Assembly: GCA_905178155.1 (NCBI GenBank)
Contig: CAJINV010000004.1
Location: 6,364,828-6,428,827, forward strand
DNA length: 64,000 nucleotides
Source: Amoebophrya sp. A120
Lineage: Eukaryota > Protista > Dinoflagellata
Direction of reading: 5' to 3'
The position numbers and the translations under genes are program-made. Shown in pieces: positions 12,091 to 62,600 of this stretch (position 1 is its first letter; every line of letters starts with the position of its first letter). The notes beneath the pieces were generated by a model that saw only the letters and a program-made list of their open reading frames with translations, ran no database searches and was not told the origin of the DNA.

Positions 12091-15000
12091 TCACGGCGAC
12101 TTCGGATTCGAGGCCCAGTCGAAGACCGCGAAGAAGAAGCTGACGCGGCCCTTCCGCAAAAACTCCTCCGTCTTCCAGGGTCCTTGGTGGATGGCCGCGC
12201 GGCACAGCGATCCCGGCCGCTCGTGTTTATGGAAGCGTCAGGATCGAAATTGACAAAATCGAAAAATTTGTGATGCATGAAATGAATGACGCGAAATACG
12301 TGTGTTGCAGAGCAGGCAAGTGAGGCCGATTGTGAGCCTGTTTGGGGTTCTAGCTAGAGCTGCTAAAGCAGCATGAGAGAATCAGTCCTCTTTGCCTAAA
12401 CAGCATTACAAACTGGATTTAGCAGGCACCACCAGAATTTGTGATGCGCCACTTAGAAACTGGGTTCGAACTGGAATCCATTTTATGCATGACAAATTAT
12501 TTCGATTTTGTCAATTTCGATTCTGACACTTCCATAGTGCTCCCCGCCAAAGTACATCGCGAAGTCGCGCCCCGTATCAAATGCAAAAATGTCTGGGTCT
12601 GGAAGATTGGAAGACTTGTCATGCACATTTTGCACGACCCATGACGCCTGTAATGCATGATCCAGCATCACAGATTTTGTGACGGCTTTTTGATGCCTAT
12701 ACCGCATGAGGAATACCCCCTCCGCGTAGCAGAAACTGGACTCCTCTCGCTGCTTACGCAGTACAGATTTTCTTCGAATCCAAAGACAGCATGACAAGTT
12801 GCATCCTTCCAGACCCAGACATTTTTGCATTTGATACCCCGGCCGCGGGGCGATCACGCGCTTCGCCTCGGTTTGCTGCAGTTTCGGGTACTTCGAAAAC
12901 CGTTTCTCCGTGAGTTCCCTCGGCCTGCCGATGGTGTGCTCCTTGACCGCGAACTTTCGAATCGGCGCCCACCGGTCGTATCGCGGGTCTAGCGTAGCGG
13001 GTTCTACTACTACGTCCTCGCGTGTCTCGTTTTTCATCGGCACAGTAGTGGAATCATTTGTTGCAGTTCCCTGAAGATGTTCCTCCTCGACAAAAGCAGC
13101 AGCGGCAGGAACAGCAGCTCCACCTGTAGTACCCGGAGCTGGGACGCCGCTGATGAACTCCATCCCCTCGAGCAGGCGGCCGTCTCCCGCAGATGGACGG
13201 GGGGAGGCGGAGGGCGGAAGGTTTATTTGCTCTTCTCCCTCCTTTTCCCCGTCCGCACAAACTTCATTGTCCGGGTGCTGGTGCTCGGGCGGCACGACGT
13301 GATCCGCGAACTTTTCTTCTGCGAGAACTGCTCCGCCCTGGCACTCCCGCACCTCGTCGCGGATGTCCACGAGTTCAGTCGTGCAGGAAAGAAAAGAGAT
13401 CACGCCGTGCAGGTAGTAGAAGTGCTCGTCGATGTGCCACGGCGGCCCGTCCGAGCACTTCTCGTCGTCCGGGGACCGGACGATGCACTGCGCCATCCAC
13501 ACCAGCCGGTTCTCGTCCCGTTCCGGGCGGAGCATCTCCTTCGCGCACTCCGGCACCAGCAGCCACTGCTCCGCCAGGTACTTCGCCAAGTCGCACAGCC
13601 CCTTCGACAGCGTTTGGGCGAGGTCCAGGGAGATGCTCGGCTCCTCCTCCTGCTCGGAGGTTTCTTCATCATCATGCATCTTCTCTGGAGCTGCTTCTTG
13701 TACAACTTTTGGTCCATCTTCTTGAAGAACCGTCGCTGTTGGCCTACTTGTACCAGAACCTCCTTCATCTTCATCAGCCTGAACAATTTCTTCCTGGCTC
13801 TGCTCCGCTTCCTCCACGACATCTAAAAGGCGACTTTTAGCAACAAGTCCTGCTGGAGTAGACGCGGGGGCTCCACCAGAACCATTCTTGCTGTCAGTGT
13901 CATCATGATCCTCCTTCTTCTCGTCGTCCTCCTCGCCCAGTGGTTCTTGTGTGAAGAACCCGTTACTATTTCCACCCGGTGCTGCGCTAAAGGAAAAGGT
14001 CTTCATCTTGCGCAGCTGCTTATCGGTGGAGAACTTCCGGGGTGGAGGTCGGGAAGAAGCTGAAGCTGGTGCTGGAAGTTGTACAACTTCTTCTACTCCT
14101 GGAGCTTCCTTTTTCTCGTCCGCCCATGTTGAACGTGCTTCTGCTCCTTCGTGCAAAGTCGTCGCAATTGCGGTACGCAGTGGAGGAACGACCTTCGTGC
14201 CTTCGCTGTTCTTCTGCGTTTCAACATAATTATTCCCTGCTCCTTGTTCCAAAGAGCCGCCAACTACGGCCGGTGATGTTGAGGAGGCGCTAGTACTACT
14301 ACAGGGGTTATTTCTACCGCCAGAAGCAGCGCTGCACGTCTTTTGTTGACAAGAACTACTGCCAACAAAAGCAGCCTCCTGCTTGTTCTTCACACCCCGC
14401 GTCAAACTGCAGCGCAGACTTTCCGCGATCTCCTTTTCCGCGTTCTCCCACTCCTTATCGCTTAATTTCTCGTGATATGGATTGCAAAAATGTCTGGGTC
14501 TGGAAGGAAGTAACTTGTGATGCTGCATTTGGATTCCAAAAAAATCTGTATTGCATGAGCAGCAAGAGAAGTCCAGTTTGGTTTACGCGGAGAGGGGATT
14601 TCTCATGCGGAATAGGCATCAGGAAGGCCTCTAAAAATATGTGATGCTAGATCATGCATTGCAGGCCTCATGGGTCATGGAAAACCTGCATGACAAATCT
14701 CGCAGTCTTCCAGACCCAGACATATTTGCAATTCATACGTGAAGCTTTCGGCAATCAAACACCGAGGACAGCGGGAAGCTGTCGCCCGTCTTCCCGCCGC
14801 TGGCCGCGATCCGGTTGGCGCGCTTTTTCACACGCAGTAAGTCGTCGTTGTTGAACGCGTCCAGCATTTTTCGCACCGTGTCCGGCAACTGCCATTTCCC
14901 CGTACTTTGCTCCAGCTCAAAAAAGTCCTGCGCCACAACGGTCGCCGGGTAGGAGTAAGGGGACAGCGGCTTCGAATTTGCGTTTGACTGTTGTTGTATC

Positions 15001-18000: not shown

Positions 18001-19040
18001 TCGGAGGGTAAAGGGTGCATCACCGGGGCCTCGTGTTCTTGAGGCTGTGATCTACTTGCGGGAGAAGAGGACGAGGACGAAGGAGGCTGGAGCAATTCGC
18101 CGCCGTGGTTCATCTGCTGTGGCGAAACAAAGTCGCTGTTACCCAACTCCAACTTTTCTTCGGCGGAGACCAAAAATTCCTTGCCGGTTTGTCGGTCTTG
18201 CACTTGCTTTTGCTCGTCCAGCGGATTAGGATTTTTGCCATTGTAGTTCTCTTCGGAATCGTTCAGCTGTGAATAATTCGGCTCGTCTCCATTTTGTTCC
18301 CCCTCGTCGAAAAAGCTGTTGCGAGGGCGGTCACGCCCAACATCCGCATGGTCGTCTTCACCAGCATTGTTATCGCTTTCTATTTTCTCTTCTGGCGACT
18401 TTCTTTCCGATAGTAGTAAAATTTGCTGAATATTATCCCCTTCCGGGTCGTTCGTGGCTGAGAGGTTCGGGCTGGTCGATTCTTGTATCAAATGTAAAAA
18501 TGTCTGGGTCTGGAAGAATGCGCGATTTGTCATGCAGCTTTTCCATGACCCATGAGGTCTGGAATGCAGGACCTAGCATGACAGATTCTGCGCGATCTCT
18601 CTCATGCCTATCCTGCATGAGAAACTCCCTCGCGACTTGGTCAAAACTGGACGACTTTTGGTAATCATGCAAAACAGATTTTTGCATGCTTCAGATTTAG
18701 CATGACAAGTTGCATTTTTCCAGACCCAGACATTTTTACATTTGATATCTTGGCTGGGTGTCGTGGGCAAAACGGTTTCTTGGTTATCGGAAATCGAGTT
18801 CTCGCTGCCTTTCCGCTGCGTTTTTGCATCTTCGGGAGTGCTTGTTGACGACGTCCTGGGTAGTAGTTCTTGTAGCTGGGCGGGACGAGTGTCTTGATTT
18901 TTGCAAAGAATAATGTTGTCATTCATTTTGCAGGACAGATTTTCACTGTGTTCTCCGCCGGTCTGTTCTTGGGGGTCCCCGCTATTTTTCCCCGGGTTTG
19001 GGATCGCGGCCGAGTTTGGAGACGCAGTAGACTTTGGCAT
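12091..19040 (-). CDS. ~1956-aa protein: long low-complexity region plus C-terminal putative 2OG-Fe(II) oxygenase/cupin-like domain
   Basis: Removing 4 introners joins exons 19040-18745, 18486-14735, 14476-12834, 12575-12534 and 12228-12091 (5871 nt) with no stop. The C-terminus has PWHIDE...AIHQGP...GRVSFFF (HxD...H...R pattern). Confidence 0.7.
12231..12533. mobile_element. Introner family B
   Basis: IR ggaagcgtcaggatcgaaattgacaaaatcgaaa / tttcgattttgtcaatttcgattctgacacttcc, flanked tAT...ATa. Excision gives GEHYKHERP. Confidence 0.9.
12578..12833. mobile_element. Introner family A (256 bp)
   Basis: Perfect IR caaatgcaaaaatgtctgggtctggaag / cttccagacccagacatttttgcatttg, flanked tAT...ATa. 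Excision gives RPGYTGRDF. Confidence 0.92.
14479..14734. mobile_element. Introner family A (256 bp), opposite orientation to 12578
   Basis: IR ggattgcaaaaatgtctgggtctggaag / cttccagacccagacatatttgcaattc. Excision gives KLHVYHEKL. Confidence 0.92.
18489..18744. mobile_element. Introner family A (256 bp)
   Basis: IR caaatgtaaaaatgtctgggtctggaa / ttccagacccagacatttttacatttg. Excision gives SQDIQEST. Confidence 0.92.
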
Positions 19041-19685
19041 TTTTTCGGTTTGGGGAATCTACTCGCAAGCGAGTAGTAATAGCTTTTCTGTTCCTTTTAC
19101 ACTACTTTATCATACTCTACGCTGCAATTTGGGAGTCAGTGGGTATCTCTTTTTAGAGTATGTTGGAAACATAGAGCAAGGTTATAGAGGTAATATTTGT
19201 GCTCTTGCTAACGCGAAAATGGTAAACATAAAACTTCAACAAAACAACCAGATTCACACTGTGATTTGAAAAAAAAAATGAACGTGCTCACAATTCGTCC
19301 TCGTATTGGAACTTCCACTAGATTTTGCGAAGATCTTCAAGAAACTCGAGACAGTTCGAGTACTTTTTTCTTTCAGACCGTCTCTCCTGTTGAGGACATT
19401 GCGATCGTATTTTCGTGCGGCTTCATTTAGTTTTTCAAACACGTATTTGGATTTGCTTGTGCGTTCAAACGCTGATCCATGATTCCAAATTGACGTTGAT
19501 CTCAGTCATTTTCACATCATACGGAGCGCGCTCGGTGCGGAACAAACCGGAGCTATGACTAACAAACTTGGTGTCCTCCAGCTCTCGTGAATTTGTGCTG
19601 CTATAATTTTTGTCACTATATCCTTATTTCCTTTGGCTTCGATTCGATTTGCTCAACTCATTTCGATTTCGTATCATCATACATT

Positions 19686-19835
19686 TGTATCGTTACGTCA
19701 GAAGTAGTATATTGCCTGGAGCCCGCACGTCAAACTAGCCCCCAACTACAGCCGATATGCTCGTGAAGGATCGCGGGCGAAAATGTTGATCTTTTGCCGG
19801 ATCTTACGAGAGTCGAGAGCGCAGAGCTTTGCCAT
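19686..19835 (-). repeat. Split direct repeat B2 (3' terminus of the element)
   Basis: 19686-19820 is identical to 20246-20380 (135 bp); homology extends to tttgccat after a 7-nt insertion. Confidence 0.95.
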
Positions 19836-20009
19836 AGAGAGAAGGGGGCTAGGTGACGCCTGGGAGTGTGAGTGAAGTTGGAGTGAACTCTAACAAATGA
19901 TCACGAAGTTGAAATGAACAGGGCAAACCACGCACTTGTATCCCGCCCGAGGAGGCGGCGGATGAGTACGTGGGCCTGTGGCCTGGAATGAGAAGGGTGA
20001 GGAGGGTGG

Positions 20010-20245
20010 GAAAGGAAAAACAGATCGTTCTCCGTCCGCTAGGTCTGAGAATGAGGTGAATGGAGTGAGAGTGAAGTGATGGAATGAAGCGGATCACGTT
20101 TCGTTTAGCGTGGATGCGTGTCCATACCCCACGGAATGCAAACGAGCTGCCACGAGCGGCTTTACAGCCAATAACCTACTTCCGACTTCGCTCACACAAA
20201 TTGGATTCCAGACGTACTACTTCGTACTACTAAGGATCCATAATC
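20010..20245 (-). repeat. Split direct repeat A2
   Basis: 236 bp matching 33113-33348 with one mismatch seen (gtttAgcg vs gtttCgcg). Confidence 0.95.
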
Positions 20246-20388
20246 TGTATCGTTACGTCAGAAGTAGTATATTGCCTGGAGCCCGCACGTCAAACTAGCC
20301 CCCAACTACAGCCGATATGCTCGTGAAGGATCGCGGGCGAAAATGTTGATCTTTTGCCGGATCTTACGAGAGTCGAGAGCTTTGCCAT
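20246..20388 (-). repeat. Split direct repeat B1, directly abutting A2
   Basis: Copy of 19686-19835. The junction ...cataatc|tgtatcg... equals the two element termini joined together. Confidence 0.95.
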
Positions 20389-20494
20389 TTTACCACAATA
20401 GAACAGGCGGGGCGAGACGCGAGCGAGGCCGGCTATGAGAGCGCGAGCGTCTCGCAACGGGAACCAGGAATTTGTATGAAGTGTAAACTCATGC

Positions 20495-30284: not shown

Positions 30285-30444
30285 GTTGAAGCACAACTTC
30301 AGATAATTGGTCGCTGTTAGAATCGAATTTTTTTCGTACTGAAATGATTGCTTTTTCCTTTTCAAAACTGCTCCTTCGAATTGAAATGAGTACGGAGCTG
30401 AAGTGTTCTAATGGTGAATGGAGAGTGACAACCGTCTAGCAGTT

Positions 30445-31136: not shown

Positions 31137-31138
31137 TT

Positions 31139-33112: not shown

Positions 33113-33348
33113 GAAAGGAAAAACAGATCGTTCTCCGTCCGCTAGGTCTGAGAATGAGGTGAATGGAGTGAGAGTGAAGTGATGGAATGAAGCGGATCAC
33201 GTTTCGTTTCGCGTGGATGCGTGTCCATACCCCACGGAATGCAAACGAGCTGCCACGAGCGGCTTTACAGCCAATAACCTACTTCCGACTTCGCTCACAC
33301 AAATTGGATTCCAGACGTACTACTTCGTACTACTAAGGATCCATAATC
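33113..33348 (-). repeat. Split direct repeat A1 (5' terminus of the element)
   Basis: Near-identical to 20010-20245. Confidence 0.95.
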
Positions 33349-37487: not shown

Positions 37488-38658
37488 CTACGCACTGCCC
37501 TCCGGCCTCACACGCCCGTTCCTCTCCTCGCCCGTCTTCTCCTCCGCCTTCGTCTCGGTCTCCCCGTCCGTCTTCACCTCGGTAGAAGCGGGTGTCGTGG
37601 TGGTCGTGATTGTCGCGTCTTCATCCGCAACCGTATGCATTCCAAATATGTCTGGGTCTGGAAAGATGCAAGGTTTGTCATGTTTGGCTAACACGACTCT
37701 TTAGTCTGTTATGCGCGTGACCCAAGCCCCCTCACTTTTCTCTCATGCGGAAGCTCACTTTATCATGCATAATAGACAAGACTGTAGCAACCCCAAAGCT
37801 TGTCATGCTTGGCAGTAAAGTGAGGTTTTCTCGTCTTTCTCAACCAGCATCACAAGTTTCCAGACCCAGACATTTTTGCATTTGATAATCCGCCGTGGTC
37901 GTGGTTGTCGTGACAGTGGAGTTTGTCGTTTCCTCCGGGACCTCAAAGCTGTGCGGGTCGCAAGCGCCGCAAGAAATTCCGGCCGAGTATGAAGGGAAAA
38001 AAACAATAAACGCACCAGCAGCTTTGTCGTGGTGCTTGTTCATCGTCGTTTTGGTTTTCATCGTTTATGATTCTGGTGTAATTACAAGCTGTGGAATTCA
38101 TGCAGATAAGTCCCGGAAGCTGTTGCTGTATGAGCTGCCTACACATGTCACTTGAATGCATGGTGAAAAAATGCATTGCCCATGCTTGTGAAACCGCGAA
38201 CGACCACGGACTAGGCGCTATGCCGAAGTGGAAAGTATGTATCTCATACACCGAACTGGTTGGCCATCGCTTTTTGGAACCCGTTGCGCGAGTCTGTGTG
38301 CTCCGGGGCAGCTGAAGAGGATGGTGGGCAATAAGTAGAACATGGTTAGAGGAGATTCAGATTATAGAGGTGTTTTCTATGAATAAAGCATCAAGGTTGT
38401 TAACTTCATTATTTTTCATGTGTGAAGATTCCAAAAAAAAACTTCTATACCGTCGTAGCTGAACCACTTGTTGTCTTCAGAGCTTTTCAAGTTTTCGCCG
38501 GATGCCTTTGCCATGTCTTCCTCAAACGCCGCCTTCTCCGAGCGCCAGTCGTCGTCGTCCTTCACCTTCTTGCTGTTACGCAGGTGCTTCGCCTCGTCAA
38601 TCACGACCTGCGTGACAAAGACAGCCAAGCACAAGGATCTACTCGAGCAGGAACGCAT
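37488..38658 (-). CDS. Hypothetical, probably secreted protein with a Thr-rich C-terminus; internal exons unresolved
   Basis: First exon has a hydrophobic N-terminus. The last two exons join across an introner (TTTADY|TVADEDAT). Confidence 0.45.
37637..37884. mobile_element. Introner family A (248 bp)
   Basis: IR caaatatgtctgggtctggaaa / tttccagacccagacatttttg, flanked tAT...ATa. Excision restores the frame. Confidence 0.88.
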
Positions 38659-39543: not shown

Positions 39544-40507
39544 TCAGGCCTTCACAAACTCATACACCCCGTTCTCCTCGTCAATGTCCAGGTCGCAGTC
39601 GAACGCCTTGCACATTTCGAACAGCAATTGCCGCGAGCCTTTCTTCTCCACGTCGTCCGTGAACACGGAGTAAGCCTTATCCCGTGTAAAACCGTCCCCA
39701 ACCCAGAGTTATTGGATGCCTAAAATGTTTCTCATGCGCAAACCCATGAGGAGCGTTTTCTAGTCGTGTTTTGAGATTTGTCATGCTCGAATCAGCATGA
39801 TAAGCCCGAGCTGTGATGCTGCTTCACTAGCTAAAGTTACGACTGCATTAAATGCTGAAATTTGTCATGCGCAGCACCCAAAGCTTTTTGATTTGTCTAG
39901 CAGATTTCCCACATTGACTCTGGGGAAGTGGGCACGTTTTTACTCAGCATACGTCTCCCCTTCCACAAGCGAGGCCAGGTTCATTTCCAGGTCCAGTTTC
40001 CAATCCTCGCGGATTTGCTTGTCAGGGTCAAGTATCAACGGTAAATATCCCTGGATGTCTGGCAGACTGTAAACTTGTCATGCAGGTTTTCCATGACCCC
40101 TGAGTTCTGGAATGCGGGGACTAGCATGCCAGACTCTGCTTGGTCTCTATCATGCCTATCCTGCATGAGAAACTCCCTCCCAACGTGGTCGAAAGTGGAC
40201 ACCAGCTTTTGGCACTCATGCAACACAGATTTTTGCATGATTCGAATTTAGCATGACAAGTTGCGATCTTCCAGACCCAGACATATTTGCAATCCATATC
40301 GAGCGACTTGCTGTCGAAATTCGCCTTCGCATCGTACGCGAAGTCGTATTCCTCCTCCCGATCTGTATTCGTACTGCCTGCTGCAGCTGCTCCGAGGGGC
40401 GGATTTGTTTGCTGTGGGAGGAGGAATTGCTGGGTGGAGGTGGTCATCTGTCGCTGATTTACATGACTTTCAGGTTGTACTATATGTCCAGAAGTCGCCC
40501 CGCCCAC
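39544..40507 (-). CDS. Hypothetical protein, 3 exons
   Basis: Exons ..YDFAYDAKANFDSKSLD / LPDIQGYLPLILDPDK..GETY / KAYSVFTDD..YEFVKA*, separated by two introners. Confidence 0.55.
39681..39948. mobile_element. Introner family C
   Basis: Imperfect IR gtaaaaccgtccccaacccagagttattg / cattgactctggggaagtgggcacgtttttac, flanked tAT...ATa. Excision gives GETY|KAYS. Confidence 0.75.
40049..40295. mobile_element. Introner family A with one decayed IR
   Basis: Interior is closely similar to 18489-18744. Right IR intact, left IR degenerate. Confidence 0.8.
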
Positions 40508-40704
40508 TTGCTGCGGATAATTTGGTGCAAATTTGCTCGTCTGTGGCTGCGCAGGTGGCGGCTCTGTTTTTGATTTTATTTTACTAATTATGCGGAGTGT
40601 GGAATAATTCTCAGTACAAGAATGCGCCCTCTACGCAGCTTCGCAAGCCTACGCTACCGCGACAAAATCACAGAATCAACATGAAAAGACTCAGAGTCGG
40701 TGTA

Positions 40705-43700: not shown

Positions 43701-45864
43701 CGCCAGATGTTTTGTCGGCTTGTGCTTCGACAAGTGGTTCAGAAAGTAGTGCTCGGTGATCACTTTCAAATTCTTCAATCGCATCTGTCCTACCAACGTA
43801 TCCTGTGCAAAAGTATCGTACTCGTAGCCGTAGTAATTGCAATCATGCATCACATTTTTTTTTCTCAAGCTAAATCCGCATTACAAATTTCATTTCTCAT
43901 GCTAAAAAAATTTGTAATGCATTTATACGAGTACGATACTTTTGCGGTTCATACAACGTCTGCAACAGCATCTCGTCGCTGTCCATCGTGAGGGCGGAGA
44001 TCGACGGTTGCTCTTGCTTCTTTTTCCCCTTCCGCTCGCCGAGTTTCAGGAAGCTGTGGCAGAGAAAGGTGATGGAGTTTTGCGCCAACGTCATGGCGTA
44101 CACGAGTTCCGCCTCTGTGCAAAAGTCCGCGTTCACCTCCAAGACCTGCAGAGCCGTTTTCGTTCCCACACAATAGACCACCAAATCAGCATTTTTCTTC
44201 TCTTCGTAACTCGGGAACAGAATGAACTCCATCTTCATATTTTGTTCCCACTTTCCCATACTCTGTTTCTCGATATCCGACAAGGTTTCCAACTCGCCCT
44301 CAACCATCGGGCGGTAGAAGCCCGCGACCAGACAGCCCGCCACCGGCTCGTCCATGGGGATGTCTGAAAGCCACAGCGCGCACGCCCCGGCGTTCAAGGC
44401 CAAGGGTTGCGGTAGGTGATCCTTATCCGCGGACAGACAGGTCAGCAGCACCTGCGTTTCCTGCTTCCACCAGAGCGCCAACCGTTGGCGAAACGGGGAC
44501 TCCGTGAGCCGGGACACCAACAGCTCGTGGTTTTCCAAAAACTGCGCGTTTCGGTTCCCCGCGCGGTCTTTCACCAGGGTTTTCCCTAGAGCGGAGGAGC
44601 GTTCCTTGTATTCCACTGTGAGGTTGGAAAAATTCGAATCGCCGGCACCCGACGTCGCTCCTGACGCGGTCGCGGTGCCGAGCACAAAGGTGCCGCCCAT
44701 CCCGCAAAACGCCGCCCCGTTGGCCTGTCGGGCGATGTGCCCGGTCTCGAAAACCAGCACGCGGTCAGCCGCGACCCGGCACTTCATAATCGTTTTCTCC
44801 GGGTATTTGGGGTCCTGCGACATCCGGATCTCGTGGTAAAACTGCACCGGGGCCAGACCGGCGGACACTTCCTCCTCGCTCGGTTGATAATTGGGCATCA
44901 CATTCATCGGCTGCGATGGGTGTAGCTGCGTAGTTCCCCCTGCTCCCGGTGGACTACCGGTAGTTAACCCCGGAGTGACCAGACGGTGACTGACTGCCCT
45001 CGAGACCACCTCTGGTTGCAGCTGTTGCGCCAGAACACCTTCTTGCTGGTGTCCAGCTCCGGCGGAGTTGTTGTCAGTATTGTCATTCTGCGAAAAGGAC
45101 GGGGATATGATGTTGTCCTCGTCGTCATCCGCCTGCGGCCCCTTTATTCCGTGACCACTGTCACTGACACTCATGCGCTGTTCTTGTTGGTCCTCATTCT
45201 TCTGCCGGTCGTGCTCTACCAGTTGTACTTCTCGTCGGCCCTGTCCAACATCCTGTCGCGCCGCGCTCCTCCGCTTGGAGGAGGACGCTGCTTGTTCTAT
45301 TTGTGCGTTTAAATCCACAACATTCTCGTCTTCGTCCACCGAAATCAGGTCGTCATCGTCCTCGTCCTCCGGATTAGAAATATCTACTTGTTCATTCCCA
45401 TTTCGGTTTTCCTCGCCTGGACCTGGAGCTCCACCGCTGCGGGGAGACGATAACACCTTACTTCCGCCACGTGGTCTACTGCTGCTCCGAACTTCTTCTG
45501 CTACTACCCGGGGAGAGGAGGGCGCGGCTGCTCTCTTAAAAACTCCTCGCCGCGCCTCTTCCCTCGCAGGCTGACTACCGCCACGCAGAGGTTCTTGTCC
45601 CGCCGCCAGCTCTTGCGCACCGCTTTTACTTGTGCCATTTCTGACCGGCGTTCCGGGCGTTCGGTCCTCGGAGAGAACCGGCCCGGCGCTACGACTTCCC
45701 TCATTTTCACCCGAATCAAAATCTTCCTCATCGTCCTCGCTGATCGGGTTCAGGGGGAGTTCTTGATCTACTAGTTGTGCCTCTTGATCAACTGCTGCGG
45801 GGCCCTGTTGTTGTTGGCCATGGCCGCCCGGCTGCCGCAGCGTTATGTGTTGGTCCTGCGCCAC
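40705..45864 (-). CDS. pnp: Polynucleotide phosphorylase-like protein (two RNase PH domains plus three KH domains, no S1 seen)
   Basis: Motifs FETGHIARQANGA, LTVEYKER, RICGRQIHEVR, HGSAVFTNGDTQ, REIGHGNFAERAL, FPYTIRV, SMASVCGGSLALADAGVP and MDLKVAGS. GxxG KH loops GPGG, GRGG and GKQG. Introner 43802-43950 and GT-AG intron 42519-42730. 5' end unclear; possibly fused to the upstream gene. Confidence 0.88.
43802..43950. mobile_element. Introner family D (149 bp)
   Basis: IR gcaaaagtatcgtactcgta / tacgagtacgatacttttgc, flanked tAT...ATa. Excision gives QTLY|TLVG. Confidence 0.9.
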
Positions 45865-45931
45865 CCGGCTGCCGTCACTGGAGACGCTCTCGTAAGATCC
45901 GGCCTCGCTTGGTCGGCTCTCCCCGGGTTAT

Positions 45932-46075
45932 GCATTGCAAAAGTATCGCACTAGTATGAATTGCAATACAAATTTCCTCAGCGTGACAAATAAAATTTGT
46001 AATGCGGATTTAACTTGAGAAAGAAATTTGTAATGCGTGAATGGGATTAGTACGAGTACGATACTTTTGCACAGG
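45932..46075. mobile_element. Introner family D (144 bp), opposite orientation to 43802
   Basis: IR tgcaaaagtatcgcactagta / tacgagtacgatacttttgca, flanked tAT...ATa. Confidence 0.88.
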
Positions 46076-48678
46076 ATACGGGTGGTGCAGCGATGTTGAT
46101 AGTGCTCGTCCCTGGCTCATTTTGGTCGGTAGAAAGGATTTCTGCATTCGCCAGATCCGCCTCGTTTTCATCTTGCTCGGCGAGGACAGATATTTCCTTG
46201 TCCTCATCTCCGCCCACAGAAAGCACCGGCTGTTGTATAATGTCCTCTTCGCCAAGAACCTCTTCTTCACCAGCATCTTCGGAACTACCGCTACTACTAC
46301 CCTGCTCCGACGCTTGGTCCTCGTCTTCCCCGCTGATATCCAGCTCTTCGTTCATGTCGTCCGTCACGTATTTCAGCATCTCCCGCCGCATCGTGCTGTC
46401 AAAGGGCACCCCGGTCTGCATACAAAACTCCTCGGGAAACCGGGGAAGACAAAACTCGTCCACAAAGGGGTTCTTCGTGGCGTCTTCTAACCCCTTTTGC
46501 AGGTGCGTCAGGGAGGCCTGTGGAGTTGTTTTCGACCGATTACGAATTTAGAAAAAGTAAAAGAATGAGAATCCGAAAGCGAAACATTTTCTAAAGTCTG
46601 CAAAAATCTTTATCCAAAAAGAGAAAACCTATCCATTACGTTCAGGACGGTGTCCTTGAGCTGTATTGCGTGCATCCCTTTGTAAGCCCCCTCTACGTTA
46701 TGCCGCCCCTTCTTCCCCCCGAACGCCAGCCCGACCGACTGGACGACGTGGCGGCCGTCGCTGGACATAAAGGGTTTCCGCCGGTAGCACTTGTCGGTGC
46801 CCGTGGCCCAAAAGTGCCACCGCGGTTTTAACGCCCGGATCAACTCGCTCACCGCGGGAGAGGCGTTGAATTCGTAATTTTGCGGCAAAAAGTCCCGGTC
46901 CCGATGCAACTCCTCGGCGGGAACCAGGCTGTTTTTTTATTTGGCTTTTGATGATGTTCTGGTGGTGGTGACCGACCAGCATGGTTCATGTGGTTGCAGC
47001 ACAAAGTAAAGATGTAGTAAGTTGCGCCAGCACTAATATGCTGTCCAAATTCGGACACTCCTGGTTGTACACTCCTGGTTGTAAAAACGTTGCATATATT
47101 TTCTTATGAGTACCTTGTCAGCCCGCAGGGTCCCTCGGAGGTCAAGAGCAAATCTACCGGTTTTCCGTCTGCCAACTCATATGGATTGCAACTATGTCTG
47201 GGTCTGGAAGGTCGCAACTTGTCATGCTGTTTTTGGTTTCTAGGGAAATTTGTATTGCATGACCAGCAAGAGGGGTCCAGTTTGTGCTGTGCAGACAATG
47301 GACTTCTCATGCGGAAGGCGCATCAGGAAGCCCTCTAAAAGTCTGTGATGCTCGGCCATGCACTACAGCCATCATGGGTCATAAGAAATATGCATGACAA
47401 GTCTTGCACTCTTCCAGACCCAGACATATTTGCATTTGATAACTCAATAATGTGTTCGATGATCGGGCGGTTGTAAGCCAGGCCCGGGCTGCCGTCGGCC
47501 TGCGCCCGAAAATTACACCGGCAAAATTGCAGCGTTTTGTCAACCTCCTCCAATGGCTGGCCCACCCCCCACCCGTTGAACGTGAACCAGTCGATCTGCC
47601 CGTGGCAGATGTTGTCCTTATCCGGGTGCACAATCCGCGGAATGGTTCCGGACAGGTAGGCCACGCGCATGCCCTGGATCTCCTTGATGCCGCACCCGCC
47701 AATGTAGTGCAGGTTGTCGGTCACCTTCATCCCGTCGCTGAAGCCCTTCTTGGACATGTGTGGCTTGTGAAACGCGGTGGAATCCTGGTCCAGGAAAAAC
47801 AGGGGGATGTCGCACTTAATGCTGCCGTTCTGTGGTATGTGATAAATCAAATTTTTCTTTCTTGTTCACAAAGAACAGCGAGCTTGTTGAGCTGCCAGAG
47901 AAAGTGAAGAAGCAGCCTTGAGGACAAAAGTCGCGCTTATCGAGATCCATGCAACGTGCACGCGCACGCGTGCAACAAAAAATGTTTTCCATGACGAATA
48001 CACTGCCCTATGAAAAAATAAACGAATACCGCCATGAAGGGGGCCATCCGCGCGGCATTGGTGTCCGACATGAACTTCCCAACGCAGAAACAAACATCCA
48101 GCGGCCCCTTGCTTTTGTGCACAGCCGCAATTCGAGTGTACAGCGGTTGCAGATCGCCGTCGCACGTTCCCGCGAACAGAAGGCGGCGAACAAACGGCTT
48201 CGGTTTCGGAGGTCCTCGCTGGTTGCTTGCAATTATAGTACTGCTTGACGTCGCTGGTTGATGTTCAACTTCGACTTTCTGTTTTTTCTGCAGCGGTGGC
48301 TGCGACACTGGCTCCTCACGGTCGAAGGGGTCGTCTATGCGAGTGCACAAACCCCCTTCCCCGTTATTTGTCATGCAAAATGCAAAATCCAGTTGCTGCC
48401 TTGTGGCACTGTTTGCATGACGAAATCATCTGGAGGCCCAAATACTACTAAAATCAACGCATGAGCTTGTCATGCACAGCCTTCACGCGTGCTGGTGTTT
48501 CTATCGCTGTTCACGCCGTACAATTTATTACAAATGAGGGGGAGAGGGAGTTGTGCACCACTCTCGTATCATCGCTCCGCCGCTTGGTCTTCCGGCTCGC
48601 TGCGGGATCGATACTGCTGTTTCCTGCCGACGCCATGTTGTCGCTGCTTGTGGGCGGGGGCGGCGGCGGTGGGGGCAT
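46076..48678 (-). CDS. CWF19L1: CWF19-like 1/Drn1 N-terminal metallophosphoesterase-like domain protein; CwfJ C-terminal domains not seen
   Basis: Motifs LLFAGTCDG, VHKSKGPLDVCFCVGKF, NLHYIGGCG, RVAYLSG, VDLLLTSE, VSELIRALKPRWHF and YRRKPF. GT-AG introns 47830-48029, 46929-47113 and 46518-46639, plus introners at 48339 and 47183. Confidence 0.8.
47183..47438. mobile_element. Introner family A (256 bp), same orientation as 14479
   Basis: IR atgtctgggtctggaag / cttccagacccagacat. Excision gives IIELYELADGK. Confidence 0.92.
48339..48565. mobile_element. Introner, E-like family
   Basis: IR gtgcacaaacccccttccccgttatttgt / acaaatgagggggagagggagttgtgcac, flanked tAT...GTa (one repeat diverged). 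Excision joins RRSDD to DDPF in frame. Confidence 0.75.
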
Positions 48679-51448: not shown

Positions 51449-54400
51449 TCACAGGGAAAAAATCAAACTGCCGTCCAGCCAGCGCATCGCCCGGAGGTCG
51501 TACATACCCCATGGCGGACAGACCACCAGCGCGTTCGCCCATGCATTCCGCGTCACGTGCTCCGCGTACTGGCGCATCCCACTTTCCGAAAGTAAATCAA
51601 AGGGATACCGCTCCGACACATCCTCGCAAACCCGCGCTAGCAGCGCCAACTGGTCTTCCCGCGAAGAAAGTTCGAGCTGCAGATGGTAAACACGCGCGCG
51701 CAACGTGGTCAAATTGGCGACTGTAGCCGGATCGATTGATGTGACAGCCGGAGATGTAGTTGTGGTTCCTCCGGAGGAGCTCCTGCGCGTCAAACCGGCA
51801 CGAAGAGGTGGTAGTGTGGGTGTCGATGCCGGATGAGCTGCTCCTGCACTGGTTGTCGATTGTCCCGGCTGCTGATCAAGTAACCCTGGGGACGACCTTT
51901 CTCTACTCGTTGTGCCAACATTTTGATGCTGCTGCAACAATCCGAGACGACGTTGCTGAGGCTGAAACGGGTGTTGTTCATTATGATGTTCGTTTTGAAG
52001 ATCATAATTTTCGAACCCACTAGAAGTCCTCCTCCCTCTGCTCCGGAGCCGCTGCAGCCACCCTTCGAGCTGGTTTGCAGCGTTCACAGACGGGAATGGT
52101 CCGAACAGAATTGGCATTCGTTCTCCTCCCGTTGAAGACGGAGATGATGGGTCGCGCGAGGTCATCGGAGACTCGAGCTGTGAAAAATTAATGATGACTG
52201 TCTTTTTTTTTCAAAACTTCACCGCAGCCGATATTTCATATTTTCAACATGTCAAACCAAAGACAAAAATACGTGATCCAAGACTCGCTGCTGTTCTGCT
52301 TGTTGCGGCCCGGCGGACCCTTGTTCCATCGCCGGAACTAGCCCCGGCCCGGCCATCACCTCGCGCAGTCCATTTGCTTCTGCTTGCGATGCGTAGGAGG
52401 ACGGCTGCCTTAGGAGCTGTGCCAAGCGCAACATCGAGCCGAAAGATGATCCCATTGCAGGAGCCCCTATTTCCCCTCCTCCCATGGGAACAAATGGCTG
52501 GAACTGCGGCTCTGTAACCTGCTCTTCAAAACCCGGTGCCGCCGCCATGCCTGATGGTGAAGATGCCGTCTCGTTGTTACAATACCGCAGGTTGAAGATG
52601 TGCGGCGGGTGCATAGCTAGACTGCAAGAACCTGAAGTAGACCACGAGGGTGGAGCTGCTGTGTCAGTGCCACTTATCTCTATTGGTGTTGTTCCTGTCG
52701 CACCACGATGACCCTCAAGAAAAGCTCTTCGATGTTCATTCTCTGGCGGCCAGCACGACACATGAACCGGAAGGTGCTCCGGGACCAGCCCCTGTTCAGC
52801 ATGATCATTATCCGTTCTGTCCTGCAACGTAGTAGCTGCCATACTCATCTCCTCGGACTGCATTCTCTCAAACCACGGCTCGGCATCCAGCCCCTGCTCT
52901 CGAAGCCGGTCTACTTGCACTGGAAGCAAGGCGTTAGGGATCGGCGGAGTGGGCGGCCGCCGGAACAAATCTTCTACTGCCTGCTGTTCTCTGGGAAAAC
53001 GAAAATTATTGACAGCAATATTATCCCTACTTCCATCAGTCGTGCTGCGAGCCGAAACGTTACCAAGCTGAAGTATTTGCCGGCAAAGCTCGGTGGCGGT
53101 TGGCTGTTGATACGGAGGACCATTAGGATGCCTCTCCTGCCGGAGATGATTCTGATTTGCGGCCCCGGAATAAGATGAGGATGGTGATGATGATAAAAAC
53201 GGTCCTTTCGTGGTCTCCCCTATACCGAACGAGTGTTCTTTACTCGTCCCCGGAGTTGTAGGAGGTCCCATTTTGATCAGTTTCCGGTTCTTCAACCTGG
53301 CGCGACCACTGCCCGTTGCTGCCGATGGTGCACTGCTGCAGTTGTTATCTACTACTTCGCAACCAACCTCTGTGTTTGTCGAAGCCTCGCAAGAGCTCGA
53401 ACTTGCAAGCGGAGTTGATGTCAACATTTGGGGAGCTGTTACAGTCGACGCTGGGCCACCAGCAGGAAGCAGTTCTTCTTCTTCGACAGCGACGGGACCG
53501 TTGCGGTTGTACAAGGGTCGGTAATATGATGTCTCATCTACAGACATTTCCCTATAATTCCCCTGCTCTGTCCGCTGGTTCTTGGCATGCGAACATGACG
53601 AGGAGCTACTCGTCGTCTCTGTCGCGCGACCCTTAGTACTTCTACACGATATTGCGCGGTGCTGAAGCTGCCGCTGCACAAACCAATCCGTCACGTTCAA
53701 AGTAGGCACTGTGTTTCTTGTAACACAACTTCCGCTGCTAAGGTGTGCAGGAAGTACATCTCCGGAACAACTAGGAAGCGAGGACTATGAGCGTGAGAAA
53801 GTATTCATTTCAAAAATATTCACAGGGCCGAAAAAAATTTTTTTTGCGCAATTAGTGAACGCCCAGAAAAAAGGCTCAGCGACATGCGCGCGCGAGAGCT
53901 TCGCTGCGGCGCTTCATGTAGAAATCCTGGGCCAGAAAGCGCACGAAACGCGTTCGGCGACTTGCAGGGCCGAGAGATATCAAGGCCTACGCCTCAAGTG
54001 TGGTCCTTCCTCTCTAAAGAAAACGATGTGGCGCGCGCTTTGGCGGATTGCTTGCTAGGTAGCTGGGCGCCCTCGCTCCTTTGCGGGGACCCCGCGAAGT
54101 TTTTCTGCAGAAGCTGGAAAGGCCCACTTCGCCCAGGCGCAAGCGCTACTCCTCTAAAGGCCAAGGCTGAACTGAAATGCGCCACAGCGCCGGCAATGGC
54201 TGTTTTGCACCAAGGCGGACACCTCTCGCCCGCTTCGCTTCTCAATATTCATTTTCGAATCACGACGACACTGCGTTTCCGTTTTTATTAGCAGAAGCTA
54301 CTCCCACTTGATTTATCTAATATTCATCTGCGCAATTTGCGACAGCGAAAAACGCCAAAAAAGTGCGCACTTTCTGGGAAAAACAGGCGTTTTTTGGGGA

Positions 54401-55674
54401 GGTGAATACTTTCGCGTATCCCACTGCTATGCTCCTTCCAGACCAGCCCAAAAAGTAAAAATATTCATACCTCCTCTGAGGACGTCAAAAAAGTGCTTCT
54501 TTTCTGCTTGCAACCTTTGCGGCTTTTGGCAGCACACAAAGTTGCCGAGCTTGTCTATAGACTTGGCCAGCAGAAGCATCCTGGTAAAGGCCAGGCGACC
54601 CCGTCTTTTGCAGGGGTTTGCGCCTCGGCAAAGTGTGGCCGTCTAGAGCAACTGCTCTAATGCCCGCCACTTACCAGGATGTGCTCGAGCCCAGTCGGGA
54701 TCGAGCAACGCCTGTAGGGGCAAGGCAGCGCAGAGTGGCAGCTTCTTCAAAGCTTTGAGACCGTGATCTGCCGCCTGAATGCTACGAATGCTGCCACTTG
54801 TGGAAGTTGGCTTTGCATGTCGCCGGCGTGCAGGCCGTCCCCTGTGTGTTTGAAGGATCTGACTCTCGAGCGCCATCGACCGACTGGGCTCAGCAAGCGA
54901 CTTCCAGGTAGTACCTGCGTCGGGGCATCGCAGGCGCGTTAGCGCTCTGCAATGCCTCACGCACTTCGCCCCGGCACACCGGCTAAGGTGTGCAGGAAGT
55001 ACATCTCCGGAACAACTAGGAAGCGAGGACTGCGGCCCTGGTTCCAGCGTCGAAACGCCACTTGCATAGAAGTTGCTAGTATCGCCTTGCTCTTCTCTCG
55101 CCGACCGAGTGAAAGGTCTACCGAGGTCGCCAGCTGGTGGATAAAAATTGTTCACTCCCATGTGGGTGGACGACGATGTTGTTGTTTCAGAAGAAGCCCT
55201 CTGTAGAAGTGGTGGTAGTGGTAGTCCTCCTGGCAGTACTAAACCCGGCGTCAGTGCGAATCTTGTCGCACCACCAGCAACTCCAGGGTTGTAGTGCGCA
55301 TGATATGCGCTCGAACTCGCATAATTTGAAGAAGATGCTCCTGCACCTCCCGCGTTTCTACTTCTCCTGTTTGGTCGATTACGATCTCGTGTTCTAGGAA
55401 CTAGGCCTTGCCGTCCAGCAGCGAGTGGAGAGGGACCCATATTAGAGGACTGAAACCCAGAGTTGTACCCTGTCGCTACTACACCTTCATTCCCATACTG
55501 TTGTAGATCATCTTCTACCCGGTTGCCCTGTCCTGCTGCCGCTGAGTCGCAGAAGAAAAGCAAGCAGGCGAAAGAAACTAGCACGGGGCGACGCCGGCAG
55601 CTCACTGAGTAGCTGCGACGCACCGGGATAAACTGAGGGAGCGACCCTGGTGCTCGTCCCAGCCCGCCCGCCAT
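51449..55674 (-). CDS. Hypothetical secreted low-complexity protein interrupted by a 1.2-kb insert (intron or disruption)
   Basis: Signal-like VLVSFACLLFFCDSAAAG. SSLPSCSGDVLPAHLS is encoded twice, and the second copy is in frame with ORF 52252..53709. GT-AG intron 52178-52272 joins LDH|LESPM. Confidence 0.55.
53737..55031. repeat. Identical 50-bp direct repeats (53737-53786 and 54982-55031) flanking a 1195-bp insert
   Basis: gctaaggtgtgcaggaagtacatctccggaacaactaggaagcgaggact occurs at both positions. Confidence 0.9.
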
Positions 55675-56402: not shown

Positions 56403-58519
56403 TCACACCGTCCAGCGGTAATCGTCGCGAAACCATTTCTCGTTGGTTCTCAAATCCACGGTCAGTGTGTAAAGGAAATCCGAGTCTGGCCGGGAGGTCG
56501 TGCCAGGAAGTAGATGAAGTCCGACCGGGAAACTAACCACCACCGTGTCCGCCGCATATCCAGAGTATTCCCCGGGCTGGAACTTCCGGCAGTCGATGTC
56601 CAAAAGCGGCTGCATGGCCATGAATTTATCAAATGCAAAAATGTCGGGGTCTAGAAGATTACCAGGTTTGTCATGCATATTTTGAATGACCCATGATGTC
56701 TGCGATGCATGCCCTAGCATCACAAATTTTTAGAGGACTTTGTGATGCCTCTGCCGCATGAGAAATGCCCTCTCCGCGTAGCACAAATTGGAGTTCTCCT
56801 GCTGGTCATGCTGCATGACTTGTATTGCGCATGTATTGCATTGCAATACAAATTTTTTCAGAATCCAGAGACAGCATATACAAGTTTAGAACCTTCCAGA
56901 CCCAGACATTTTTGAATTTGATAGAATTTAAACAGCCGCAACTCCAGCTTTGGGTTTTTCAAGTCGAGGGCAATTGATTTCAGGAGGATAAAATTCCGTT
57001 CATACTCCATTTCTGAAACGGTCGATTCGTAATTCGCCATTTTCCTGTCCAGCGCCTGCATTAAGGCCGGTTGCTTTTTGTACTCATCGACGAAATCCCG
57101 CAGCGCTATCAAAATGAAAAATCCCCCCTCCCCATATCAAAACGGAAATTTGTGATGCTGATTTGTGGTCACAAATCGTCTTTGTCTTGCCTGCAGGCTC
57201 ATAGGAGCCATTTGACGTCGCATTTCAGAGCGAGTCTGTCATGCGCTTTCGACTACTACAAACCTGTTTGCCATGCGCAATTGCTAGCCTTCTGCATACC
57301 CAAACAGGGTCAGAAAATGCCACCAAGCACTTTCTGCAAGACAGATCTGATATGTGTACGCAAATCCAGCATCAGAAACTTCGTTGCGATATGGGGAGGG
57401 GGAATTTTTCCTCTCAATAAGCGCCGCGCCCGCTTCTAGCGAGAGAACCGTGTCTCTGGCTTCGTCGCACTTCATTTTGGAGGGGCCACTAGAACTAGTA
57501 CCAGCGACGTCGCTGCGGCCAGCTGTACAAATAGTAGAATCGCCGCAACGGAATTTAGCATCACGGTTTAACTTGTTGTTGTTTCCGCGGAATTTATTAC
57601 CGCGACTCGGCCACTTCGGGCCTCGCGGCCCAGTGCTGTAGTGCTGGCACTCCTGTGGATCACGGTCACCGAACGACCCCTGTGGCCGATAGTGGTCGTG
57701 CTGGAACACATAATCGGGCAAGGCCGCGGCTTCCGCCGCCGGTGGCAAAGATGTTGATGCACCACTGCTTCCTCGTGTCTCCTGCCGAGGGAAGTTGTGC
57801 TGCGCGATTACTACAGGACCATCTGACGATGAAGGAGGAGGACCACGTGGCAAAAAAACAGGACGTGGCACGACACTGCTGCAGCTTCCGGCAGTTGTAG
57901 CAGTGACTCCCCCCGCGAAATACGCTGGCTGGTCCGGATCGAAGGCGTTGGAAGTAGAATGCGCACGGTGTTCTTGTACATCGTCCTCTTGGCACGTCGT
58001 GGTCATAATGTCCTCGTTGGAAAGATTGCAATACTCGCGGACCAGGCGGTCATACGTGGGTAATATTAAACCATGTTCATCTACTACTCCGTGGTCAACA
58101 TCTGCTGCTCCCAGGTCATCATGACCTGAGGAAAGTGAATGGTCATCTGGTTCCAACGCCGGCGTTGCGTGGGCCTCTAGTCGTGCTGCCGTAGTCGTTT
58201 CATCCCGAAGAAAAGCGTTCCGCACCCGCTCTCGTTGCGTCTGCCGCTCCAAGGTGTCCACGTAAGGCTCCCTGCTGCTGCTGGCATTGCTATCGTAATT
58301 GTACGGAACTGAACCACGGCTGTTGTACGTGTACCCTGGGATTTCAACATCTCGCGGATGATGTTCTGGGGGCTGCAAAAACGCCCTCAAACCTCTGCTC
58401 ATGTTATTATACCGAAACATCTGCATCTGCAGTGCCATCGTGTTTGTCACGCGCCAGGCAGCAAGCAGCAACAGGGCCGCTGCGAGAGGTGGCGTCTTCG
58501 TTGCTGTAGCCTTTGCCAT
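56403..58519 (-). CDS. Hypothetical secreted protein, 3 exons
   Basis: Signal-like LAAALLLLAAW. Introner excisions give AALI|ALRDF and FKFY|KFMAM. Confidence 0.7.
56630..56920. mobile_element. Introner family A (291 bp)
   Basis: IR caaatgcaaaaatgtcggggtctagaag / cttccagacccagacatttttgaatttg, flanked tAT...ATa. Confidence 0.9.
57110..57416. mobile_element. Introner family E
   Basis: IR gaaaaatcccccctccccatatc / gatatggggagggggaatttttc, flanked tAT...ATa. Confidence 0.88.
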
Positions 58520-59678: not shown

Positions 59679-62600
59679 TTACGGACGAACCTCCCCATGG
59701 TCCTCGCGGAAAAAACCCCGCCTGGGGGTAAAGTGCCGTTTCCCGGTTTTGAAGTCTACCGTTAGCTCGTAGTGCGCTTTGCAGTTACCTCCCAGCGGAA
59801 GCTCGACGGGCACCGTGACCTTCTTCCCCTTGAGATCGACCGACTCGCCTTTGCCGAGGCTAATGCTGCAAGCGAGAAAATTAACCAGCTCGTGATACAA
59901 CTGGCGAATATTGTGACGAAAAATCCCCCCTCCCCGTACCAAAGCGGGATACTTCTGAAAATTTGTGGTGCTGATTGAGACCGCCAATCGTCTCTCGATA
60001 TTGCAAGAAGGCAAATCCAAAAACCTGGCCGCTTTATTCTGCAGGTAATTTGTCATGCTGCACGGCCTGCGGAGGACGTGCCTGCCTTGCTAGGCGCCTA
60101 CAGCAAAACGCCCCTACTCCCGCTTTGTACCTGCCTGCACTCCTCTACTGCAAGACAAAGCCGATTTGCGTACACAAATCCCGCATCACAGATTTTCATT
60201 TCGATATGGGGAGGGGGGATTTTTCCTTTTGATAGCGAAACTGGGAGGTTTTCTTGTCCTCGTACTCTCCCACGCGCACTCCATTCTCCCGTGCCCAACC
60301 GAGCAGCATTTTCTTCCAACTTTTAGCGCTGTCCGTTTCTATCTCCCCGCTCTTTGTTGCGCAGTTCAAGATGGTCGTGCATGGCTCCTCGTTGGGAGGA
60401 GATAAGGTGTCGGAGGTTTGTTCGCAAACTCGACTCGGACGCCTTGATTGGTGGGGCCGGACCACCTGCCGTAGTGCGCGCTCCAATTTACCATGCGGAA
60501 AGATCTCAGCCGCAGAGACAACGAACGGGGAAGAATCTTTACACTTTGCTGTCGCGCCGTGTGGTCCTGCACGATCTGAAGGGAAGTAGCTTTTCGTGTC
60601 CTGATCATGCCCGGTTGCAGCAAAAGTGGTCGTCGCACCACTCGATTTTTGCCACAGCATCTCTTTTGTTTTTTCCGGCAAATTATTGTTTTCCACTGTT
60701 AGCAGATACGGAACTGTTTGCGTGACCCCCCTGTCCTGGTCTACACTGAGCCGCAAGGGCACCAAAATCTGTAACCCGCGGGTGGTGTCCGATAGCAATT
60801 CTAGCGGCATATGCATCAGGGCCGAACTCCCGAGATCCTTCGTGAGCACAATGTAGTTCAACACGGCATTGAACTGAACATCAACCGGAGATGAACTACT
60901 TCTACTTCCCGTAAAAGAAGTTCCTACATGATCCGAGGTAGTTGTACTAAGCGTCTTTATTTCCACAGCTCGCGCGTTATACAGCCCGAGTTTTTCCGCC
61001 CACGCAGACAGTGCGTTTTTCTGCTCCCCAGCAATGGGCAGGCGGAAAAAGTCCGCTTTGTCGTATCCGTTCACCAGGTCGGCCAACGCTTGCTCCAATT
61101 GCTTCTGCGGCGCGCCGCAAAATTCTTTTTGATGTTTCCCAGTGTTGCAAAGATCTTCGACAAGGTGGCATTCCGCCGAGCTGGAGGCACTTGAACTACT
61201 ACGCTGTTGACCGCTGCACAGAGGTAGTTCTTGCGGAAAGAGCAATTCGTCCCCCCACTGCTCACTCGCTGCCGTAGTTTCAGGCTGAAGTAGTCCTTTA
61301 TCAAGGCTGGTACGAGGACAGCTTGATGCTGTACACTCCTGAGAGGCTCCTGCAGTAGAAGATGCAGAGGCCACGCTATACGGTGTGGGCAAAAGACCTG
61401 GGTGCAGCCAGGTAGAAGATTGGCACGAGTCGCACTTACAACCAGGATGATAGGTTTTTTTCCTATCGCACCCAAGAAGACCAGCGACATCGACGCCCCC
61501 AGGATATAGTAGTAGTTCTTCCCCACTTTCTTCGCTGATTTTAGCCAATTGACGATGTTGTGCAGCTGGTGCACCGCAGGTGTGCGAGGACGTGCTCCGG
61601 TTTTCGACGACACGGTGGAACTTGTAGAAAACCGCCTCCTGCTCTTCTTCGTCCTGGTCGGAAGTACAACTAGGACCGCGCACGCCAACATTTTGACCGC
61701 TCTTACTGCTGCTGCTGCCTCCCCGCCCGCGCGGCACGCGCGATGAGTCCCAATTTAGATTTTCCTGTCGTGGCAAAAAACGGATATCTCCCAAACCGAC
61801 ACCCGAATGGACGTCATAGTCCAGAAAAGTAGTCGGCGGTTCGGGGACGCCAAACTTCTCCTTAAGCCGAGCGATGGTGACGGAAGGCGGACTCTTGTTT
61901 CCCTTTTTTTCTTGCTCGGCACGTCGTTCCTTGTCGAGAATCCTTGCTAAAAGCTCTTGCTCTCGTAGAGATGGTGCGGTACTACCCTGTTGGTCCTCAA
62001 GCGGCACTGGTGCTCCTTCTTGCGTGCTGACGGCGCCCGCGGTACTAGCTGCGGCATCACCAGGTCGGCTCGCCCAGACCTCCGGACCGCTGGCCCGTCG
62101 GTCGCCGGCTTCCTGACGTGGTTTTTGTTGATAATGATAGGCGGCCTGGTGGCGGGGTTGGCTGTAATTATTGCTATACCCGTGTTGATGAAAATGAAAA
62201 TCCAGCCCGTGTGAAGGTTCAGGTTGTGTAGTTGTACTCTGCAGCCCGGAGGCATTGATGTGGTGCCATGGAACAGGTGCAACATCCTGTCCTCCTTGTT
62301 CCGGCCAGCCGTGGGCGGCGCCACTGGTGCTACCCGCATCATGGCCGCTCCAACTATGCCACCCCGCTGCCGCTGGCAAGGATCCCGTGCTTCCCGCATG
62401 AGCCGATGGTGCCGGGTGGTCATTTTGAAGATCCTCGCCTCTTTCAAATGCTCTTCTCCGACTCACATAATCATCATAGTGCCAGCCCCGCGGAGCCTCC
62501 TCGTGCCCGTGCGTCTGCCTGGTCTGCCTCTGCGGAAAGGTCGTCCAACTGTTGCTCGCGCTTCTGGGCGCCAGACTGGGGCGCCAGTTGCTCCCCCGAC

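Follow-up and report, generated by a model that had tools for sequence, protein, structure and literature searches.

Fifteen short insertions with inverted-repeat ends interrupt the genes of a 64,000-nucleotide (nt) stretch of the dinoflagellate Amoebophrya sp. A120 (contig CAJINV010000004.1, forward-strand positions 6,364,828 to 6,428,827; the whole stretch is referred to here as the window), and they are very probably removed before translation by a process that is blind to their orientation. The elements are nonautonomous DNA transposons that begin and end in TAT...ATA inverted repeats and are flanked by a target-site duplication (TSD) of 5 bp; judged by their sequence, they are the introner elements already published for A120. 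Given that about 65% of Amoebophrya introns have no GT-AG ends, the question addressed here is how they are removed. Each element, together with one TSD copy, is likely cut from the pre-mRNA by machinery that would read the paired ends.

Elements were searched for as TAT...ATA pairs with complementary arms. Seventeen pairs were obtained and 14 were kept, two internal sub-pairs and one weak pair without a duplication being dropped, and a relaxed search yielded a fifteenth element with one TAC end (Table 1). Elements are named here by their first position, and family letters are partly our own and partly those of an earlier note on this stretch. As that note had claimed, all 15 sit within minus-strand reading frames, with true ends 3 nt to the left of the positions it gave; element 40033 was not on its list. 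Lengths range from 150 to 326 nt, with inverted repeats of 30 to 45 nt. TAT was found at 28 of 28 ends of the first 14 elements, and A at end positions 11, 12, and 13 in 24, 24, and 26 of these ends (families B and F deviate). Outside TAT...ATA lies a 5-bp direct repeat whose sequence varies from element to element; its two copies are identical in 10 of the 14 and have 1 or 2 mismatches in the remaining 4 and one mismatch in the fifteenth element; out of 1,162 TAT...ATA pairs spaced 100 to 400 nt apart, 11 had such a repeat, and 10 of those are these elements. The arms are complementary at the first three bases in 14/14 elements, at positions 4 to 9 in 6 to 10, and at positions 10 to 26 in 11 to 14. 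Predicted folding z-scores ranged from -2.1 to -10.7 over the 28 strands (both strands of 14 elements), and terminal stems of 18 to 36 in-register pairs are predicted on all 14 sense strands. Another motif, TTGT(C/G/A)ATGC or its complement, had 29 of its 37 window occurrences within the first 14 elements (5.8% of the bases), often 40 to 44 nt from each element end. It is also present in some apparent canonical introns and lies outside elements at 22780, 28321, 28715, and 29606; it could be a transposase site, a splicing signal, or a trace of decayed elements.

Both orientations occur in the same gene, as the earlier note had proposed. Four family A copies lie one way and two the other, with interior alignment scores of 71 to 237 in the true orientation versus 20 to 36 in the other (z, 8 to 30; two pairs tested), and the gene at 19040-12094 (model P0002) contains both. 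The flip it described for family D (43802 versus 45932; true starts 43799 and 45929) was likewise confirmed, with an interior identity of 76.8% when flipped versus 54.7% in the same orientation. The two family B copies share one orientation (2 versus 0). For family E, the reported flip (57110 versus 59912) was not borne out: global scores favored the same orientation at 6/6 trims, the best two blastn hits were on the same strand (101 and 79 bits versus 47 and 37), and informative columns were 9 for the same versus 4 for the flipped orientation, 3 of these 4 in the outer 7 nt. Interior identity was tied at 55.5%; the cores do not align, while the subterminal arms agree with the same orientation.

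Taking out the element plus 5 nt joined long reading frames, of 1,950 codons over four elements, 1,186 over both D elements, and 513 over E and A. Among 13 elements checked in those frames, 11 add stops if kept (5 stops in the case of 14476), while 12575 and 2943 would be read through in frame without a stop. The claim that the frame is restored in both orientations of A and E stands for A and extends to D with the element-plus-5 boundary; for E, the flip that it presupposes was not supported. In run X3, which is RNA-type by the tool's guess, leaves out one GT-AG intron, and shows no coverage at 49158-50489, a contig skips 43794-43953, which is exactly 155 + 5 nt (160 nt), and two other pieces stop at 57420 and 59903, where the edges of the E copies are expected. 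Two window open reading frames (ORFs), P0001 and P0002, match proteins bearing the name Amoebophrya sp. A120 at 100% identity, and these models drop element plus 5 nt at 8/8 element junctions, among them A and D junctions of either orientation. According to the available text of PMC7789003, the public models are based on transcript alignments and keep the longest ORF. Since 12575 was dropped in spite of being stop-free, we infer that its removal must come from transcripts. An A25 protein and a second ortholog are gap-free across 14476, 12575, and 12228, that is, over both orientations of A (18486 is not covered). In addition, the elements' own interior letters were absent from RNA-type contigs at five interior sites, those of 56627 at 56725 and 56892 being a weak case. 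As for 47180, neither an RNA joint nor a gene model was seen; at 47410-47441, the match of 76 reads of the raw RNA run X9 is confined to the family A end, and their flank is always the same, so that they represent one retained copy at another locus.

The imperfect duplications bear on where the cuts fall. The copies flanking 39678 are not identical, and P0001 carries the residue of the upstream copy, so only registers -2, -1, and 0 are allowed. This residue of one model would place the 5' cut ahead of the stem by 0 to 2 nt and the 3' cut 3 to 5 nt past it, in arbitrary sequence. The TSD copies keep an identical codon in 11 of 15 cases and a synonymous one in 2 more, while those of 37634 and 39678 give different amino acids. 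In the metagenome copies described below, 13 of 23 TSD mismatches fall at third codon positions, too few to speak of a synonymous excess, and no stop codon among the mismatched copies decides a register.

Using a 20-base end motif, we found at least 151 loci of the same families in metagenome contigs (the 80 matches listed share one assembly prefix), which contain 184 distinct elements. The 5-bp repeat was exact in 152, while at most 2 of the 184 had any exact repeat of 3, 4, or 6 to 9 bp and none had one of 6 bp; candidates had been ranked by their 5-bp match, which makes these counts slightly circular. The earlier note had taken an AT repeat as part of the signal, and this did not survive, the flanking repeat being a variable 5-mer in the window (exact in 10/15) and in the metagenome (152/184). 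AT- and TA-repeat boundary models were rejected; the AT model differs by 9 nt, which keeps the frame and brings 3 extra residues and a stop at 45929.

After 6 metagenome copies had been set aside for having more than 2 mismatches and 9 because their flanks were short, 169 remained. A codon model that called the strand right for 15/15 window elements found one-frame coding on both sides after removal of element plus 5 nt in 47/169 copies under strict and 92/169 under loose settings, versus 1 each for plus 4 and plus 6 (strict). Out of the 92, 90 would break the frame if kept, 19 have 1 or 2 duplication mismatches, and 90 to 92 carry the end motif TAT-N7-AAA; in multi-element loci, a single strand was called in 18/18. 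Orientation counts, which the earlier note had suggested making genome-wide, could be made here for 74 of the 92 and gave 36 reference-like versus 38 flipped copies (A, 20 versus 25; A-like, 9 versus 7; C, 3 versus 4; D, 2 versus 2; E, 2 versus 0), with no bias in family A (P = 0.55) or in the four two-way families (P = 0.72). All of these counts are DNA evidence only. Insertion phase was uneven, with 47/92 copies having the whole codon in duplication positions 2 to 4 (P = 0.001), a skew that differs between strands, is absent in the window, and may be an effect of the caller. Three long copies (L047, L048, and L025; 457 to 631 nt) with exact duplications are possibly nested elements. A search of viral contigs for the elements gave 0 matches.

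No conventional directional signal was found, in agreement with the earlier note. GT-AG, GC-AG, GA-AG, and AT-AC pairs were present in 0/15 window elements over six duplication registers on either strand, and a canonical-like pair occurred in 14 of 73 exact metagenome duplications versus 11.3 expected by chance (59/73 had none). In the metagenome coding copies, TSD bases match the same-phase exon background, and no difference in composition separates the 5' ends from the 3' ends on the sense strand. A branch-like YTRAY was found at no shared distance in the elements. Together, unbiased two-way use and exon-like target sites rule out directional signals in the element interior or in the target, and the signal is thus confined to the mirror-image ends. 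The symmetric signal that had been proposed (terminal hairpin plus AT repeat) stands as regards blindness to orientation, ends that are not of the GT/AG type, and predicted stems, and fails as regards the AT repeat. That two-way function by itself points to nonstandard splicing was too strong a claim: inverted repeats place the same sequence at both ends either way, so two-way use alone does not exclude the spliceosome. It is the lack of junction constraint and of orientation bias that argues for unusual removal.

We tentatively favor removal by a spliceosome-independent nuclease and ligase, both putative. The ends are predicted to fold into a stem of 20 to 35 bp in either orientation, which would leave the two duplication copies as single-stranded arms; guided by these symmetric ends, a candidate nuclease would cut the element and one TSD copy out of the pre-mRNA, and a candidate ligase would do the joining. 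With both cuts at the distances from the stem given above, it would be the transcript, and not the element, that supplies direction. A precedent for such removal has been proposed in the nonconventional introns of euglenids. It is quite possible that this amounts to a second, spliceosome-independent mRNA intron pathway that removes any TAT...ATA transposon with one TSD copy, at any coding position and in any direction; if so, thousands of insertions would be rendered invisible to the proteome.

Several observations weigh against this proposal. The available text of PMC7789003 credits A120 with nearly all spliceosomal proteins, U1 proteins included, and with U2, U4, U5, and U6. Fritillaria, in the account available to us, splices its inverted-repeat introners with the spliceosome, and register -1 gives N-TAT, close to the GTA donors of the host. 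The inverted repeats are fully explained by transposition, and positions 4 to 9 of the ends pair in only 6 to 10 of 14 copies. On the sense strand, G-U pairs were not favored over A-C (32 versus 34 in the window and 92 versus 106 in the 92 metagenome copies, a comparison diluted by inherited mismatches), which gives no evidence of selection for pairing in RNA. Just one joint, for one of the two orientations, is seen directly in RNA, in a run whose RNA status is guessed; the flipped orientation is supported by gene models and orthologs. Raw RNA runs X9 and X10 have zero coverage of the host genes, and 77/169 metagenome copies have no confident coding call.

A divergent U2-type spliceosome that uses signals in both inverted repeats is an alternative only slightly less likely. 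The N-TAT 5' end, one base into the duplication, would then resemble a GTA(C/A) donor whose first base is free, and distance from the stem would define the 3' site. P0001 allows register -1 as one of three, all 3 model-supported canonical introns begin with GTA, TAC stands at the sense 5' end of element F, and the nearly complete A120 spliceosome and the Fritillaria precedent speak for it as well. The top A120 noncanonical pairs in Table S4 of PMC7789003, as far as that source is available, all have T in second place; as evidence for register -1 they were set aside, since aligners may slide inside the repeat. A home-made gene predictor for the canonical donor logo was too noisy (A at +3 in 13/36) and was not used. 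What this explanation does not account for is that G is not enriched at the would-be first base (24 versus 23.1 expected), that there is no AG, no 5'/3' asymmetry, no orientation bias, and no YTRAY at a common distance, and that the predicted stem would cover both splice regions. As a side observation, the canonical introns at 46518-46639, 42517-42728, and 40562-40719 are rich in A and C toward their ends (...CACAG, ...AACAG), where a pyrimidine tract is scarcely developed.

The other explanations dispense with an RNA cut. It is very unlikely that RNA polymerase skips the element by jumping over a DNA hairpin, with the nascent RNA re-pairing with the second duplication copy and no splicing at all. 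Such skipping would depend neither on orientation nor on the sequence at the junction, predicts retention of the upstream copy, in line with 39678, and, being based on a DNA-level structure, fits the G-U result; however, the RNA-type contigs that join element ends to flanks at other loci mean that elements are transcribed at least sometimes, the 19/92 copies with 1 or 2 duplication mismatches remain in coding frames, and we know of no precedent. Highly improbable, in turn, is that the elements stay in the mRNA, the joints being reverse-transcriptase jumps over the hairpin while ribosomes bypass the insert. A hairpin with short direct repeats is the substrate published for that artifact, in the sources available, all the RNA evidence went through reverse transcription, a 5-nt repeat contains one whole codon in any phase, and the 11 identical and 2 synonymous codons would suit a bypass. 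Yet at 37634 and 39678 the amino acid differs between take-off and landing, a first-strand jump should keep the downstream copy where P0001 has the upstream residue, and interior letters are missing from RNA-type contigs at the five sites mentioned above. Programmed excision from DNA before expression, resembling that of internal eliminated sequences (IES), had been offered by the earlier note and is extremely improbable. Transposon-type ends, exact restoration of the target site, and the G-U result fit a DNA reaction, but DNA-type contigs of run X1 (contigs lose rare variants) enter the elements for 24 to 57 nt at a depth of 39 to 45, equal to that of the flanks. No empty-site joint was present among the 15 joints listed of 460, from which rare excised molecules could have escaped; gene call P0005 of another record reads into an element E, and 184 copies are present in the DNA of the metagenome assembly. 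To our knowledge, dinoflagellates have no separate somatic genome.

Table 1. Elements and host gene models of the window. Numbers 1 and 2 after a family letter give the orientation (2, flipped).
Feature	Positions	Strand	Length	TSD	Remarks
Host gene of unknown function, P0002	12094..19040	-	1,944 aa		Contains A1, A2, A1, and B elements
Host gene model P0001	39547..46768	-	1,956 aa		RNase PH and KH domains, PNPase-like; possibly fused model; contains D2, D1, A1, and C elements and 3 GT-AG introns
Family B	2943..3249	-	307 nt	Exact	Orientation as 12228
Family B	12228..12536	-	309 nt	1 mismatch	Removed (314 nt) in P0002
Family A1	12575..12836	-	262 nt	Exact	Removed (267 nt) in P0002
Family A2	14476..14737	-	262 nt	Exact	Removed (267 nt) in P0002
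Family A1	18486..18747	-	262 nt	Exact	Removed (267 nt) in P0002
A-like (family A ends, other interior)	37634..37887	-	254 nt	1 nonsynonymous mismatch, position 4	
Family C	39678..39951	-	274 nt	2 mismatches (positions 3 and 5)	
Family A1	40033..40298	-	266 nt	1 mismatch	Removed (271 nt) in P0001
Family D1	43799..43953	-	155 nt	Exact	Between two RNase PH domains (Pfam)
Family D2	45929..46078	-	150 nt	Exact	Removed (155 nt) in P0001
Family A2	47180..47441	-	262 nt	Exact	Frame restored on removal
Fifteenth element (F)	48336..48568	-	233 nt	1 mismatch	Sense ends TAC...ATA
Family A1	56627..56923	-	297 nt	Exact	
Family E	57107..57419	-	313 nt	Exact	
Family E	59909..60234	-	326 nt	Exact	

Among 18 pieces of the window, 2 had a Pfam match above the cutoff. 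A further gene, with elements 47180 and 48336, spans 46520-48680; its product seems to resemble a CWF19L1-type metallophosphoesterase-like protein, although Pfam, homolog, and PDB searches with its exon at 47443-47865 had no match. P0005, which is 87% identical overall, reads into element 57107-57419 at the same site, where 44 element-encoded residues are identical and better conserved than the low-complexity exon. The insertion is shared, and P0005 gives no empty site. At 53737-55031, a multicopy insert of 1,245 nt lies between exact 50-bp direct repeats, without TAT...ATA ends; it is skipped in an RNA-type contig, and taking it out restores a long frame. Conceivable explanations are another intron-like element, an allele, and a collapse in the assembly (the repeat is longer than the word size). 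Noncoding direct repeats were also seen at 20010-20245 and 33113-33348 (236 nt, 100% identical) and at 19683-19820 and 20243-20380 (138 nt, 99% identical).

The elements themselves, their 5-bp repeat, the noncanonical junctions, and the hairpin idea are already published, as are two-way introners elsewhere. In the openly accessible text searched, no report of element orientation in Amoebophrya was found. As far as searched, what is new is the unbiased two-way use without junction constraint, together with a way to map the cuts, since imperfect 5-bp duplications allow both cut positions to be mapped from existing RNA reads. If our proposal holds, a system able to erase insertions precisely, at any place and in either direction, would account for the introner explosion, and it could be a new RNA-processing activity.

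For A120 introners, the available text of Farhat et al. (2021; PMC7789003) gives the end motif TAT-N7-AAA, a direct repeat of 3 to 5 nt at the exon/intron boundary (5 bp in the legend of Fig. S19), and RNA-supported noncanonical junctions and proposes a hairpin and an alternative splicing mechanism. The window elements agree in organism, end motif, 5-bp repeat, repetitiveness, non-GT-AG ends, and absence from the RNA-type joint and gene models. In that text, in contrast, "orientation" concerns genes, and two-way use, lack of bias, exon-background target sites, and cut register are not reported. The introners of Polarella glacialis and Aureococcus anophagefferens, in the available part of 10.1101/2020.10.14.339549, are also DNA transposons with TSDs that serve as introns in either orientation, but in them the element or the TSD supplies a donor that starts with G and an AG acceptor, and orientation bias is seen in classes 6, 8, and 10; the A120 elements have no canonical pair, TSD constraint, or bias. 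TA...TA termini are shared with the IS3EU/GingerRoot DNA transposons, whose TSD is usually 6 bp, according to the available part of PMC10045372, and not 5 bp as in A120. Integrase-like homology is reported for an A120 introner family. We found no transposase in the A120 copies and no autonomous copy within the 64-kb window. Ciliate IES are removed from the expressed DNA at a TA repeat of which one copy is kept, whereas the A120 elements are present in DNA-type contigs and their repeat is a variable 5-mer. The noncanonical introns of Fritillaria borealis, as the available account has it, derive from MITEs (miniature inverted-repeat transposable elements) that carry inverted repeats and TSDs, and a modified U2 spliceosome splices them; for the most part their ends have a fixed sequence (AG-AC and AG-AT), while the A120 elements have at least one end of arbitrary sequence in every register. 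Euglenid nonconventional introns, as described in the available portions of PMC3935182 and PMC11282704, have variable noncanonical ends joined by inverted repeats, TSD-like repeats, a proposed MITE origin, and a possibly spliceosome-free removal, and they are released as circles. Variable ends joined by a terminal stem are common to both (predicted in 14/14 A120 elements), but lineage and motifs are different, and the Amoebophrya copies form young multicopy families with a fixed 5-bp duplication.

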